Position numbers and translations under genes: made by a program. The notes beneath the pieces were generated by a model. The model was not told the DNA's origin, did no database searches, and was given only the letters and a program-made list of their open reading frames with translations. 64,000 nucleotides of DNA from a virus. This document shows, one piece after another, positions 25,957-33,435 of the stretch. Location: the UHGV virus genome UHGV-0351052. One strand, given 5' to 3'. Each line of letters opens with the position of its first letter. Within the stretch, counting starts at the first letter, position 1.

Positions 25957-27544
<1,588 letters not shown>

Positions 27545-27571
27545 AATAAAATGGGCCTTGCGGCCCACTCC

Positions 27572-28074
27572 TTAAAAGTATTTTTTAAAACTCATCATAA
27601 CTTTATCATCAACATCATTATCAATCTGTGCAACAAGGTAAGATGACAGTTCTACTTCTTGTGGCGCGGATTGAACATTATCAGAATTAAGATATTCACG
27701 AATCCAAGGATACGGATGTTTAACCGGAGCATCGGTAATTGGGCATGGAAGACCACACTGTTTCATACGAGATACAGTTAAGTAATCAATAAAGCTCCAC
27801 ATGCTATTTGTATTTAATCCAGGAACATCGCCATCTTTAAATAAATGAACTGCCCAATCTTTTTCTTGGCGGTTAACTTCCATGAAAATATCAACTGCTT
27901 CTTGTTCACACTCTTGAGCAATTTTAACCCATTCATCACCATCAGTGCCAAGTTGAAGTTGACGAATAATATATTGAGTGCCTTTAAGGTGAAGCTGCTC
28001 ATCACGTGCAATGAACTTCATAATCTTGGCATTACCTTCCATGATTTCCATGTTCTTATGGAAGTTAAAGGTAC
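27572..28074 (-). CDS. nrdB: ribonucleotide reductase small subunit NrdB, exon 2
   Basis: frame continues upstream of track ATG to ...TFNFHKNMEIMEGNAK; conserved R2 motif MEGNAK; boundary approximate. Confidence 0.8.
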
Positions 28075-28668
28075 CGTTATGTTCAATTGAGCTCGCTAAT
28101 TCTCAACCCGTTCTCTTATGAACTGCTACATATTACTATGCAGACCAGACTATATCACAATCCCAGAGGGATTCTCCCCATTTCGAGTCGCTTGACCCTA
28201 CGTCCGAAGACTAGTCGTTGAACCTTGCTTTGCAATTGTCGCCGTGCCATCGTTTATATGTTGATGGTGATAAATCTTTCTTATCACAATATGGACAATT
28301 CAATTGAATTCTATTTGGATTTAATTTGCATCTGTCATTATGTTTTAAATAAAATCCAGGACCTTTACCAATGTGACCGCAGAAATCACATGTGATTTCT
28401 TTTTGTGCAGGATGGGTCCCGTTCTTAACCATTTCTAATGTTTTTGCTGATGTTCTTTTCTTATGGTCTTCCATCAGAATCTTTAGGTATAGGTCCGTTA
28501 GCATCTATCCAAATTTTTCTATAGTTCAATTGTGCATCCTCTTAAAAGTATAATCATATTATACTAATTAAAGGTGCAAGCAAAACCTTGGCTGCTAGTT
28601 TTCCTATAAAGGACTTTCCAGCAATTAAAGGAGTTTTCGATAAACGTTACCGTTTAAAGGCGCATTTT
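28075..28668 (-). mobile_element. group I self-splicing intron in nrdB (about 594 nt)
   Basis: exon 1 frame terminates after YVSFA; intron splits a Cys codon (T|GT); shares core elements (CAGACTATATC..., CGAGTC-CTTGACCCTAC, GTCGTT) with td intron; ends in G. Confidence 0.75.
28211..28504 (-). pseudogene. truncated intron endonuclease ORF (I-TevIII-like zinc-finger remnant, 97 aa)
   Basis: ORF inside nrdB intron with CxxC/CxxC zinc-finger motifs but no HNH catalytic motif. Confidence 0.6.
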
Positions 28669-29344
28669 ACGCAAAAGATACATAAAAACGAATAGCTTCT
28701 AAGGCATTAATAACGTGCAAACAGAGGTAAAGAGATTTCATTAAAGCACGTTTAGCTTCGGCTTCTTGTTTAATAGCTCGGTTTAAACGAAAGACAGCAT
28801 CAGGAGATTCTTTAGCTAGTTCTACAAATTCTTTAGCATTTTCCCATTCACGGGTTTTAATCAGAACATCATCATAATAGCGTCCAATAGATTCGGCTCG
28901 TTTCATGATTGCTTCATCTAATACAATCTCATCAAATACCTTTGACGGATCAGTATAAAGATTTCGCATGATATGTGTATATGAACGGCTGTGAATAGTT
29001 TCACTAAAAGTCCACGTAGCAACCCATGTATCAAGGCTTGGGTCTGAAATTAATGACATAAGTACAGCAGACGGCGCACGACCCTGAATGCTATCCAAAA
29101 GTGATTGATACTTCAGATTATTAGTAAAAATATTTTGCTGATACTGAGGAAGCTTATTAAACTGTGCAGCATCCATCATTAAGTTTACTTCTTCGGGACG
29201 CCAGAAAAAACTGATCTGTCGCTCAATGAGTTCTTCAAATACTCGATGTCGTTGAATATCATATCGAGCTAAACCTAATCCAGAACCAAAGAACATCGGT
29301 TCATTCAAAACATCAACTGGATTTGTATTAAAAACTGTGCTCAT
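28669..29344 (-). CDS. nrdB: ribonucleotide reductase small subunit NrdB, exon 1
   Basis: 225-codon frame ending ...AIRFYVSFA followed by in-frame stop at intron start. Confidence 0.85.
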
Positions 29345-29395
29345 AATTTTTCCTCTTAGTTAATAGATAGTGACTCGTCCGTGAGTCAAATTATA

Positions 29396-31660
29396 TCATA
29401 ATTTACAGGATGAACAGTCTTCAGCTTTTGGAGTTTCTATTTCATAATCATCAGTACCAGAACCATCACGGGTATTATGATAATAGAAATTTTTAATGCC
29501 ATAATACCATCCGTATAGCATGTCATCAATCATTATTGACATTGGAACCTTTCCTTTTGGAAAAATCTGCGGGTCATAATATGTATTCGCTGAAGCCGAT
29601 TGACATATCCATTTCAGCATAATAGCTACCTGCGTAAGATAAGGTTTATTACCTTTCTTAGCTAATTTCCATGTATAATCATAGAGGTCTATGTTATGCT
29701 CAATATTGGGCACGACTTGATTAAAGGAGCCCTCTTTTGATTCTTTAACAGAGACTGGTCCACGTGGAGGCTCGATACCGTTTGTACTGTTAGAAACTTG
29801 GGAAGATGACTCACACGGCATAAGTGCTGATAATGTGCTATTACGGATGCCAAAGAGCTTAAGGTCTTCCCGCAGCGACGACCAGTCACAAACGTATTTT
29901 GGAGCTGCGATTTGGTCAATCTTTTTATTGTACCAGTCGATAGGTAATTCGCCTCGAGACCAACGAGTGTCTGAATAATATTCGCAAGGTCCTTTTTCTT
30001 TGGCGAGCTTAATGGATGCTTTAATGAGTCCATACTGTAATCTCTCAAATAGTTCATGTGTTAAATCGTTAGCATCTTCATAAGAAGCAAAGTTACTTGC
30101 CAGCCAAGCTGCATAGTTAGTAACACCTACACCAAGGTTACGACGCTTTTTAGCTTTTTCTGCTTCAGGAACTGGATATCCTTGGTAATCCAAAAGATTA
30201 TCAAGAGCACGAACCTGGACTTCTGCCAATTCATTAATTTTATCTTGGTCTTGCCAGTCAAAATTATCCAGTACGAAGGCAGAGAGAGTACAGAGCCCAA
30301 TTTCAGCATCAGGACTATTCACATCATTTGTTGGAATAGCAATTTCACAGCACAAGTTACTCTGACGAATAGGTGCCTTTTCACGAATAAACGGAGTATA
30401 GTTATTCGTATTATCAATGAACTGCACATAAATCCTTGCTGTTCCTGAACGTTCAGTCATGAGCAATTCAAATAGTTCACGGGCTTTAATACGCTTTTTA
30501 CGAATATTAGGGTCTTTTTCTGCTGCTTCGTATAATTCACGGAAACGGTCTTGGTCTTTAAAATAAGAATAATAAAGCTCTCCGCCCATTTCATGGGGAC
30601 TGAACAAAGTAATGTAATCGTTCTTTCCAAAACGTTCCATCATCAAATCATTCAGTTGAACACCATAATCCATATGACGAATGCGGTTTTCTTCTACGCC
30701 TTTGTTATTTTTCAAAACAAGAAGATTTTCAACTTCCAAATGCCAAATAGGATAATAAGCAGTAGCAGCGCCGCCACGAATTCCACCCTGTGAGCATGAT
30801 TTAACAGCAGTCTGAAAATGTTTCCAAAAAGGAATAACACCAGTATGGCGTACTTCACCCATGCCAATCTTAGAACCTTCGGCACGAATCATACCAACGT
30901 TAATACCGATTCCAGCTCGTTTGGAAATATATTCAACAATTGAAGCAGAAGCCTTATTGATAGACTTCAGTGAATCGCCTGCCTCAATAACAACGCATGA
31001 ACTAAACTGCCGAGTTGGAGTACGGCAACCAGCCATAATAGGAGTTGGTAATGAAATCTGTCGAGTAGATACTGCTTCATAAAAACGGATAACATGTTTT
31101 AATCTATCAACAGGTTCATCTTGATGCAGTGCCATTCCAATAGCCATAAATGCAAACTGTGGAGTTTCATAAATTTGACCAGTGGTTTTATCTTTAACTA
31201 AATATTTTTCTTTTAATTGCATCGCCCCGGAATAAGTAAATTCCATATCCCGTTCGTGCTTAATTTTTGATTCTAAAAATGTAATTTCTTCTGCTGAATA
31301 TTTTGACAATAATTCAGGGTCATATTTACCTTCATTTACACAGTAAGAAATATGGTCAATAAATGAACGTGGTTCATACTGCCCATAAACATGCTTACGA
31401 AGAGCGAACATTAAACAGCGTGCAGCTACATATTGATAATCAGGTTCTTCAACCGAAATAGAATTCGCAGCGGCCTTAATGACAATAGTCTGAATATCAT
31501 CAGTTGTCATTCCATCACGGAGATAAGATTTAATATTTTCATATAATTCATAAGGATCTACTGATGTTCCTTCAGCTGCCCAAGATAAAACTTTAATAAT
31601 TTTTTGTGGGTCAAAGCTCTGAGAAACACCACTACTTTTGATAACATTAATTAATTGCAT
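29396..31660 (-). CDS. nrdA: ribonucleotide reductase large subunit NrdA
   Basis: 754 aa from MQLINVIKSSG (ATG 31660 with GAGGA SD); track ORF extends 32 codons upstream. Confidence 0.95.
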   Translation of the reverse strand: MQLINVIKSSGVSQSFDPQKIIKVLSWAAEGTSVDPYELYENIKSYLRDGMTTDDIQTIVIKAAANSISVEEPDYQYVAARCLMFALRKHVYGQYEPRSFIDHISYCVNEGKYDPELLSKYSAEEITFLESKIKHERDMEFTYSGAMQLKEKYLVKDKTTGQIYETPQFAFMAIGMALHQDEPVDRLKHVIRFYEAVSTRQISLPTPIMAGCRTPTRQFSSCVVIEAGDSLKSINKASASIVEYISKRAGIGINVGMIRAEGSKIGMGEVRHTGVIPFWKHFQTAVKSCSQGGIRGGAATAYYPIWHLEVENLLVLKNNKGVEENRIRHMDYGVQLNDLMMERFGKNDYITLFSPHEMGGELYYSYFKDQDRFRELYEAAEKDPNIRKKRIKARELFELLMTERSGTARIYVQFIDNTNNYTPFIREKAPIRQSNLCCEIAIPTNDVNSPDAEIGLCTLSAFVLDNFDWQDQDKINELAEVQVRALDNLLDYQGYPVPEAEKAKKRRNLGVGVTNYAAWLASNFASYEDANDLTHELFERLQYGLIKASIKLAKEKGPCEYYSDTRWSRGELPIDWYNKKIDQIAAPKYVCDWSSLREDLKLFGIRNSTLSALMPCESSSQVSNSTNGIEPPRGPVSVKESKEGSFNQVVPNIEHNIDLYDYTWKLAKKGNKPYLTQVAIMLKWICQSASANTYYDPQIFPKGKVPMSIMIDDMLYGWYYGIKNFYYHNTRDGSGTDDYEIETPKAEDCSSCKL

Positions 31661-31685: not shown

Positions 31686-31693
31686 TATAAATA
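31686..31693 (+). promoter_or_regulatory. late promoter TATAAATA for free-standing GIY-YIG endonuclease
   Basis: exact TATAAATA 23 nt upstream of ATG 31716; AGGAGA SD between. Confidence 0.5.
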
Positions 31694-31715: not shown

Positions 31716-32447
31716 ATGAAATCTGGAATATATGCTATTATAAACACTAAAACCAATAAGCACTATATAGGAAGTGCAATTAATTTTGAAGAACGATGGA
31801 AACGACACTTTAAAGATTTAGATAATGGAAATCATCATTCAATAAAGCTGCAGCGTTCTTATAATAAGCATGGGAAAGATGCTTTCGTATGTAAAATCAT
31901 AGAAGAACTTCCATACGAAAAATCTATCATTATTGAACGTGAAAATTATTGGATACATGAATATGACTCAAAGGAAAATGGGTATAATATAGCAGACGCA
32001 TCGTTTGGGGATACCTTATCTCATCACCCAAGAAAGCAAGAAATCCTTAATAAAATTTCAAATGCAATTAAAAATAATAATTCAAAATTATCACCAGAAG
32101 AACTTAAGCAAAAACATGGTAGACCTAAAGATATCAAAGGTAAAACTATAGAAGAACACTATGGGTTAGATCGTGCTATAGAACTAAGCAAAAAGTTCCA
32201 AGAAAGAAACGCTGCGCTTAATATGAAAGGCATCAATAATCCATATTATGGACAGACACATACCAATGAAGTTAGAAAACGAATTTCTGACTCACAAAGA
32301 GGTAAAAAGAAACCCCATCTAAGAGTAAGTATAGATGGGGTAGAATATCCAACAATAGCAGAAGCTGTGCGTCAAACCGGAATAAGCAGAAAACTTATAT
32401 CTAAAAGATGTGCTCTAGATTGTTGGGAATCATATTTATACTGCTAA
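31716..32447 (+). CDS. free-standing GIY-YIG homing endonuclease, I-TevI paralog (243 aa)
   Basis: N-terminal ~100 aa about 70% identical to I-TevI catalytic domain (GIY...YIG, RWKRHFK, NGYNIAD); divergent C-terminal domain; opposite strand to flanking nrdA and td. Confidence 0.85.
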
Positions 32448-32989: not shown

Positions 32990-33435
32990 CATTATGTTCA
33001 GATAAGGTCGTTAATCTTACCCCGGAATTATATCCAGCTGCATGTCACCATGCAGATCAGACTATATCTCCAACTTGTTAAAGCAAGTTGTCTATCGTTT
33101 CGAGTCACTTGACCCTACTCCCCAAAGGGATAGTCGTTAGGCATTTATGTAGAACCAATTCCATTTATCAGATTTTACACGATAAGTAACTAATCCAGAC
33201 GAAATTTTAAAATGCCTCTTCCATCTCTTTTCAAAATCTTTAGCACTTCCTACATATACTTTATTGTTTAAAGTATTTTTAATCTGATAAATTCCGCTTT
33301 TCATAAATACCTCTTTAAATATAGAAGTATTTATGAAAGGGCAGTCCTACAATTTAGCACGGGATTGTCTACTAGAGAGGTTCCCCGTTTAGATAGATTA
33401 CAAGTATAAGTCACCTTATACTCAGGCCTCAATTA
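32990..33435 (-). mobile_element. group I self-splicing intron in td (446 nt) with deleted endonuclease ORF
   Basis: exon 1 ends ...VDVFLG before in-frame TAA; intron 5' TAATTGAGGCCTGAGTATAAGGTG and 3' ...ATG match T4 td intron as recalled; 446 = 1016 - 570. Confidence 0.85.
33137..33304 (-). pseudogene. I-TevI remnant (55 codons; in-frame internal deletion)
   Basis: hand translation MKSGIYQIKNTLNNKVYVGSAKDFEKRWKRHFK|ISSGLVTYRVKSDKWNWFYINA: I-TevI N-terminal 33 aa fused to C-terminal 22 aa at an RHFK repeat. Confidence 0.75.

Follow-up and report, generated by a model that had tools for sequence, protein, structure and literature searches.

A predicted T4-type nrdB group I intron with a nuclease-deleted I-TevIII in a T4-like phage lacking mobE

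Introduction

In the 64,000-nt viral DNA analysed here (UHGV-0351052; this whole stretch is called the window), the reading frame of nrdB, the gene for the small subunit of ribonucleotide reductase, breaks off and resumes about 594 nt further on. This arrangement raises the question of what the intervening DNA is, whether the protein could be restored by splicing, and whether the element could still move from one phage to another. The nrdB intron of T4, together with its crippled endonuclease, has belonged to textbook knowledge since 1986-1991. The T4 intron self-splices, and its I-TevIII gene carries an inactivating internal deletion, whereas phage RB3 has an intact gene (PMC2790892, PMC1865063, PMC2988022). 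Guanosine-dependent self-splicing of the T4 allele was reported in work cited by PMC2790892.

Results

Boundaries of the nrdB intron

According to the ORF list and the sequence, the genes around nrdB are read on the minus strand in the order pseT, alc, rnlA, denA, nrdB, nrdA, td, frd, which is also that of phage T4. A 24-kb stretch around the nrdB intron was ~95-96% identical to many Tequatrovirus genomes of the phage collection and identical to none, which identifies the source of the window, as judged by this identity, as a T4-like coliphage (Tequatrovirus) that is itself absent from the collection.

The nrdB ORF begins with the ATG at 29342-29344, runs to ...EAIRFYVSFA before a stop at 28667-28669; the frame picks up again at TFNFHKNMEIMEGNAK, whose Thr codon lies at 28070-28072. 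Only one in-frame join restores the conserved Cys, namely ...GCG T to GT ACC..., and this sets the last base of exon 1 at 28669 (U), the first base of exon 2 at 28074 and the intron at 28075-28668. Exon 1 (28669..29344, minus strand) comprises 225 codons to ...RFYVSFA plus the T of the Cys226 codon. The T4-type group I intron of 594 nt (28075..28668, minus strand) starts with AAAAUGCGCC and ends with ...ACAUAACG, its terminal G being at 28075, and exon 2 (27572..28074, minus strand) closes the Cys codon with GT before running on to the stop. The earlier note had placed the break after ...YVSFA with a split Cys codon at 28075-28668, and this placement is exact to the base; the codon is divided T/GT, and the join equals that of an intronless allele. 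The spliced sequence TCTTTTGCGTGTACCTTTAAC aligned without gaps to TCTTTTGCATGTACCTTTAAC from the uninterrupted nrdB of the intronless phage Ec_O157kw; at the nucleotide level the junction reads TCTTTTGCATGTACC in Ec_O157kw and TCTTTTGCGTGTACC in the spliced window, and the restored frame TTTGCGTGTACC aligns with TTTGCATGTACC. Over 393 aligned positions, the spliced NrdB of 392 aa has 384 matches to the Ec_O157kw protein and 371 to that of T4, and a 240-nt spliced query found one ungapped match in many related phages.

Several GenBank annotations give two separate nrdB CDSs, as would be expected if nrdB were truly split, with halves translated apart and assembled as proteins with no RNA splicing. 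There is a precedent in the split nrdA of Aeromonas phage Aeh1, whose halves are translated separately and assembled as proteins without RNA splicing. For the nrdB of the window we give this explanation practically no credence: no start codon stands at the junction to open exon 2, whose first ATG falls in a conserved segment and would drop CTFNFHKN; the two halves are separated by a complete group I core; and the literature documents splicing of the T4 intron, which is nearly identical.

The ribozyme core

The 3' strand of P1, carrying the internal guide GCGC (28660..28663, minus strand), can pair with exon bases GCGU at 28669-28672, so that at the 5' splice site the final U of exon 1 would face a guide G as a U.G wobble, and the intron ends with the G at 28075. 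The exon bases at P1 are GCGT in all intron-bearing alleles and GCAT in the one intronless allele examined. The 5' part of the core (P1 to the P6 5' strand; 28545..28668, minus strand) corresponds to positions 1-135 of the Rfam model RF00028, and the intron of phage PD112 aligns alike. On this strand it contains P2, read from the sequence as AAACG-GUAA-CGUUU (28642-28655), the P3 5' strand CUCC (28630-28633), P4 (28618-28623 with 28593-28598) and P5 (28602-28613), after which the P6 5' strand follows. The 3' part, from P6' to the terminal G at 28075 (28075..28229, minus strand), was laid out from the RF00028 alignments and contains the P7 5' strand (28211-28218), P7.1 (28202-28211), P7.2 (28185-28198), the P3 3' strand (28174-28179), P8 (28159-28173), the P7 3' strand (28145-28153), P9 (28126-28143), P9.1 (28110-28123) and P9.2 (28087-28106), all on the minus strand. 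Both extra hairpins that typify the three T4 introns, P7.1 and P7.2, are present here. The P9 stem is CUGCAUG/CAUGCAG in T4 vs CUGCAUA/UAUGUAG in the window, that is, one G-C pair is replaced by a compensated A-U and another by G.U. At one core position (~28085) the window alone has T, every other allele having C; this change might affect splicing, although pairing with G is still possible.

At the gathering score (50 bits), RF00028 gave no match anywhere in the window. We rejected this absence as a sign against an intron, as it was overturned by the search in E-value mode and by the ORF-less PD112 allele. In E-value mode the model aligned to 28126-28362 with 33 bits (E 1.7e-6); only the 3' part of this alignment is genuine (P6', P7, P3', P8 and P9, through model position 253), its 5' half being spurious and forced into the ORF. 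When 28545-28685 was searched alone, it matched model positions 1-135 (P1-P6) with 18.4 bits (E 0.007). The PD112 allele, in which the same core is free of an ORF, scored 68.6 bits against the cut-off of 50 over the full length of the model (positions 1-253), and the PD112 type is the only form of nrdB intron that passes the gathering score. The low score of the window intron is explained by the ORF remnant, which fills the P6 loop with ~320 nt and forces a false 5' alignment; with this insert set aside, the P3-P9 core is present. The Infernal/Rfam check that the earlier note had suggested supports a group I core, seen in two halves. The same note had remarked on core blocks common to the nrdB and td introns, and sequence comparison bears this out for the 3' half, where the long common blocks include GTAGGGTCAAG(C/T)GACTCGAAA and GATATAGTCTG(G/A)TCTGCAT.

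Taken as a whole, these features make it almost certain, as far as sequence can tell, that the nrdB intron of the window is a T4-family group I self-splicing intron with a nuclease-deleted I-TevIII. Once the nrdB transcript had folded into the P1-P9.2 ribozyme core, attack by an external guanosine after the U at 28669 would free the end of exon 1, which would in turn attack after the terminal G at 28075; the T would be joined to GT, restoring Cys226 and the 392-aa NrdB. That the intron splices in this phage is to be expected from published work on the T4 allele, which is 11 substitutions and 8 indel bases away, and on the RB3 allele.

The I-TevIII remnant

The P6 loop of the intron would formerly have housed the HNH homing endonuclease I-TevIII. 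What it holds in the window is a 97-aa ORF (28211..28504, minus strand), which begins at a chance ATG in another frame than the I-TevIII N-terminus; its residues 1-11 are out-of-frame read-through, and residues 12-97 are 100% identical to I-TevIII residues 184-269. The ORF contains the two zinc fingers (CX2CX12-13HX3C) of the C-terminal DNA-binding/dimerisation domain, the first at 28328-28390 (ORF residues 39-59) and the second at 28232-28297 (residues 70-91), both on the minus strand. Pfam found no HNH motif in the 97-aa ORF, only sub-threshold zinc-ribbon matches, and the identity of the ORF was therefore taken from the I-TevIII alignment; in full-length I-TevIII, Pfam placed HNH_3 at residues 4-48 with 48.7 bits. 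The proposal that the ORF is a truncated I-TevIII agrees with this alignment, in which the C-terminal 86 residues match and residues 22-183, with the HNH motif, are gone.

Translation of the full-length gene gives a TTG start and 269 aa. The 5' end of this gene is still found in the window (28461..28543, minus strand), with the Shine-Dalgarno sequence AAGAGG at 28538-28543, the TTG at 28527-28529 and 21 codons LNYRKIWIDANGPIPKDSDGR, followed by P and a stop; the stop comes right after the leftover N-terminus because the deletion shifts the frame. ORF residues 1-11 read through this same DNA out of frame. The description of the ORF in the earlier note as only a zinc-finger remnant is thus right as to the two fingers and the missing HNH motif, but it overlooked that the start of the gene survives too, in another frame, with Shine-Dalgarno sequence, TTG and 21 codons.

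The HNH domain of I-TevIII is catalytic and its minimal DNA-binding fragment starts at residue 166 (Robbins et al. 2007, PMC1865063), while fragment 194C binds two zinc ions and dimerises with no shift of homing-site DNA (PMC1865063). The remnant starts at residue 184, between 166C, which binds DNA, and 194C, which does not, and thus past the start of the minimal DNA-binding domain. Lacking the HNH motif as well, it is predicted to be unable to cut DNA, and it probably binds DNA poorly.

Three plus-strand ORFs in the intron (28087-28221, 28225-28395 and 28392-28553) were rejected as unsupported, being antisense to the conserved intron and its ORF. Their counterparts are annotated as hypothetical proteins in phages FL23, FL18, FL12 and ESh36, whose Phanotate-based annotations show 3-4 small antisense ORFs in the intron and nrdB as two CDSs. 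Both the antisense intron 'proteins' and the two-CDS nrdB of such records are likely annotation artefacts.

The 491-nt deletion and its origin

The 97-aa ORF owes its form to the loss of 491 nt that are present in full-length introns, where they are bordered by the imperfect 10-bp direct repeat GAAGAaCATA ... GAAGAcCATA and encode I-TevIII residues 22-183, HNH included. A single copy of the repeat is left at the junction GAAGACCATA (28462..28471, minus strand). A deletion between the repeats would have taken the HNH nuclease and shifted the frame, as in T4. Alignment of the introns of T4 (598 nt), 215Ecol030PP (591 nt) and e11/2 (1091 nt) showed the same 491 nt to be missing from the window and from T4.

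Compared with T4 (NC_000866), the window has the same insertion site, split codon, ribozyme core, deletion register and ORF length. The introns of T4 (598 nt) and the window (594 nt) differ in length through three indels, one of 6 nt in the P6 loop and two of 1 nt, and there are 11 substitutions in 592 aligned positions, the compensated P9 pair among them. One of the differences lies in the junction repeat, where the window has C (giving EDHKK) and T4 has A (EEHKK). The 97-aa ORF of T4 is annotated as 'defective I-TevIII' in NC_000866 and as 'URF aa 1-97' in the 1986 record X04140, and the T4 allele was reportedly described as a defective I-TevIII by Eddy and Gold in 1991. The truncation to which the earlier note had drawn attention is therefore real but not new, its register being that of the T4 allele described in 1991.

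The intron of the RB3/U5 type is the same intron at the same site and encodes a 269-aa I-TevIII with HNH and two zinc fingers; unlike that of the window, it measures 1083-1091 nt and is mobile, with an active dimeric endonuclease (Robbins et al. 2007, PMC1865063). Residues 22-183 are absent from the window and the frame is shifted, whereas outside the deletion the full-length allele of e11/2 differs at only 3 of 594 positions and its C-terminal 86 residues are identical. A third type, with the same site and core, is found in vB_vPM_PD112 (MH837626) and, by span, in CE1 and BYEP01; PD112 also has a bare 51-nt nrdA-nrdB spacer. The PD112 intron has 304 nt (2623-2926 of the examined segment) and, over the 298 positions shared with the window, a single substitution, but a different, larger deletion between CAATTG repeats has removed its whole ORF. 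In the phage collection, 129 records carry an nrdB intron and 85 have the HNH-coding segment; the remaining ones are of the deletion type or the ORF-less type.

Short alleles were compared across 12 lineages: T4, 215Ecol030PP, FL23, F26, Lv5cm, G8, Manna, LH2, FL18, FL12, ESh36 and the window. The register of the deletion is identical in all 12, yet the junction base takes two forms, A in T4 (GAAGAACATAAG) and C in the window and all other non-T4 short alleles (GAAGACCATAAG), and the haplotypes flanking the deletion are at least two, resembling either T4 or RB3 in their 3' half. Repeated slippage or recombination at the same 10-bp repeat, making the deletion of the window independent of that of T4, might account for both observations. 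We regard such recurrence as unlikely. The 491-nt register is the same throughout; A vs C is explicable by one point change or by patch repair against a full-length allele; and the deletion of PD112 shows that independent events need not reuse this repeat. Furthermore, the 6-nt indel and the 3' haplotype are found around the deletion in every one of the four possible pairings, which implies that recombination inside the intron is frequent and can carry one deletion onto several backgrounds. The alleles are most simply explained by a single deletion in an ancestor, with later recombination and one point change.

The 6-nt indel itself (AATATA; 28552-28566, minus strand) lies upstream of the I-TevIII start and leaves the window without the late-promoter-like TATAAATA, a motif present at this place in T4, e11/2 and Manna. 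We considered its loss as a sign of decay and discarded the idea, since the motif is equally lacking in U5, a phage whose ORF is full-length; this points to a polymorphism and not to clear decay.

Is the remnant kept by selection?

Both zinc fingers are kept in an open, ATG-started frame of 69-97 aa in all 12 short alleles, and both ORF changes specific to the window are synonymous. Five frame-shifting indel events were found, all upstream of the MVKNG methionine; if indels were evenly spread, the probability that all five fall in the first ~105 of ~327 nt would be ~0.003, a value obtained by simple arithmetic on a count of independent events that is itself a reading of the aligned alleles. 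Such a pattern would be expected if the remnant were maintained as a small zinc-binding, dimerising protein, for instance a regulator, or a partner that would poison full-length I-TevIII, and the published zinc binding and dimerisation of 194C (PMC1865063) are in keeping with such a role. Nevertheless, we hold selection on the remnant to be quite improbable. The native I-TevIII start is out of frame, and the start of the open frame varies among alleles. Fragment 194C gave no shift of homing-site DNA, and the minimal binding domain begins at 166, upstream of the remnant's 184. A benefit is not evident either, because intron-bearing genomes are already immune to I-TevIII. The events are few, some of the 1-nt indels lie in A-runs prone to sequencing errors, and the region could be kept free of indels by gene conversion from full-length alleles.

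The nrdA-nrdB spacer and intron mobility

The earlier note was also right that, in contrast to T4, the interval between nrdA and nrdB is free of endonuclease genes. The spacer has 51 nt (29345..29395, minus strand), between the nrdB ATG (29342-29344) and the nrdA stop (29396-29398), and holds neither mobE, nrdB.1 nor hef, nor any other free-standing gene for an endonuclease that targets nrdB; T4 has nrdB.1 and mobE upstream of nrdB. A direct nrdA-nrdB junction like this one is found in 373 of 506 related records, so the absence of mobE is the majority state. Among the short-allele lineages it is nevertheless the exception: mobE or hef adjoins nrdB in 10 of the 12, with mobE in T4 and a gene of the size and position of hef in nine (FL23, F26, Lv5cm, G8, Manna, LH2, FL18, FL12 and ESh36), and neither is present in the window or in 215Ecol030PP. 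The hef-like gene is mostly annotated as 'hypothetical protein'. We had considered this ~530-aa spacer gene as a relative of MobE, but it is unrelated to MobE and corresponds to hef, known from the literature as a separate free-standing endonuclease that has nrdB as a target too. The product of the FL23 gene is 99% identical to U5 Hef, and on this basis the gene of the same size and position was called hef in all nine phages.

The only other genome examined with the arrangement of the window is that of 215Ecol030PP (PP328843), which is 97.2% identical over 1.9 kb and shares the short intron, the 51-nt spacer with neither mobE nor hef, and Arg at nrdB codon 42. Unlike the window, it has a 591-nt intron with a T4-like 3' haplotype and a 1-nt deletion that leaves an open frame of 82 codons.

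MobE nicks nrdB at codon 42 (Wilson & Edgell 2009, PMC2790892). It drives trans homing of the defunct T4 nrdB intron and is needed for its spread; in the phages of that study, codon 42 is Lys (AAG) where mobE is absent and Lys or Arg (CGG/CGA) where mobE is present (PMC2790892). In the window, codon 42 is CGA (Arg; 29219..29221, minus strand), in a T4-type block at the mapped nicking site. It is CGG in 215Ecol030PP and AAG or AAA in full-length, ORF-less and intronless alleles, with Lys (AAG) in PD112. The window thus shares with the trans-homing system both the defunct intron and the T4-type Arg-42 nick-site sequence; the helper is missing, however, so that the route is closed to this phage as a donor. 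Arg at codon 42 was reported by Wilson and Edgell only in mobE-bearing phages (PMC2790892), and the window has Arg and no mobE. We infer that a relative carrying mobE may have passed on both exon 1 of nrdB and the dead intron to this phage, which lacks the helper. On a related reading, it would be a natural 'orphan' that kept the MobE-type nick-site variant and lost the helper gene.

As the 97-aa ORF would not cut DNA, the intron should be unable to home on its own, an immobility suggested by the published work on the T4 and RB3 alleles. With the helper gene absent too, it should persist by vertical descent and ordinary recombination only.

The spacer also contains an inverted repeat, TGACTCACGGACGAGTCA (29371-29388, minus strand), flagged as terminator-like with a T-weak tail; in the study of Wilson and Edgell, phages lacking mobE have no terminator at this spacer (PMC2790892). 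A promoter and terminator scan of 27500-29500 gave counts equal to those of shuffled sequences.

As a separate observation, nrdA of e11/2 (KJ668714; 1-3005 of the examined segment) is annotated in two pieces around an HNH gene labelled MobE. Pfam found an I-HmuI NUMOD-like domain above threshold and HNH below threshold in this 'MobE', and the arrangement recalls the split nrdA of Aeh1.

Discussion

The window phage, which lacks mobE, carries the long-described T4 nrdB intron in its familiar crippled state. The arrangement is present in GenBank in at least one phage, 215Ecol030PP, and has little significance in itself. Its use lies rather in what it shows about detection and annotation: phage introns that contain an ORF escape the Rfam group I model at the default threshold, and several annotation pipelines miscall nrdB as two genes and add spurious antisense ORFs in the intron. 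As a minor evolutionary note, the finding of a dead intron with mobE or hef adjoining in 10 of 12 lineages fits the published idea of trans homing, to which the orphan state of the window phage would be a small footnote.

Two further elements in the window are worth recording. The td intron (32990-33435, minus strand) is a group I intron of 446 nt, against 1016 nt in T4, and scored 40.5 bits with RF00028. Its I-TevI is internally deleted, the N-terminal MKSGIYQIKNTLNNKVYVGSAKDFEKRWKRHFK being joined to a short C-terminal tail, and this form is 100% identical to those of vB_EcoM_F1 and FN, the other matches listed being full-length. With I-TevI deleted in td and I-TevIII deleted in nrdB, both T4-type introns appear to carry dead endonucleases.

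Between nrdA and the td region lies a free-standing GIY-YIG gene (31716-32447, plus strand; 243 aa), whose neighbours are all on the opposite strand. Pfam identified GIY-YIG and NUMOD3 in its product, with the I-TevI DNA-binding domain below threshold, and a late-promoter-like TATAAATA at 31686-31693 precedes it. The full region of this gene is carried by only 9 related records, and a relative occurs in some Klebsiella phages.
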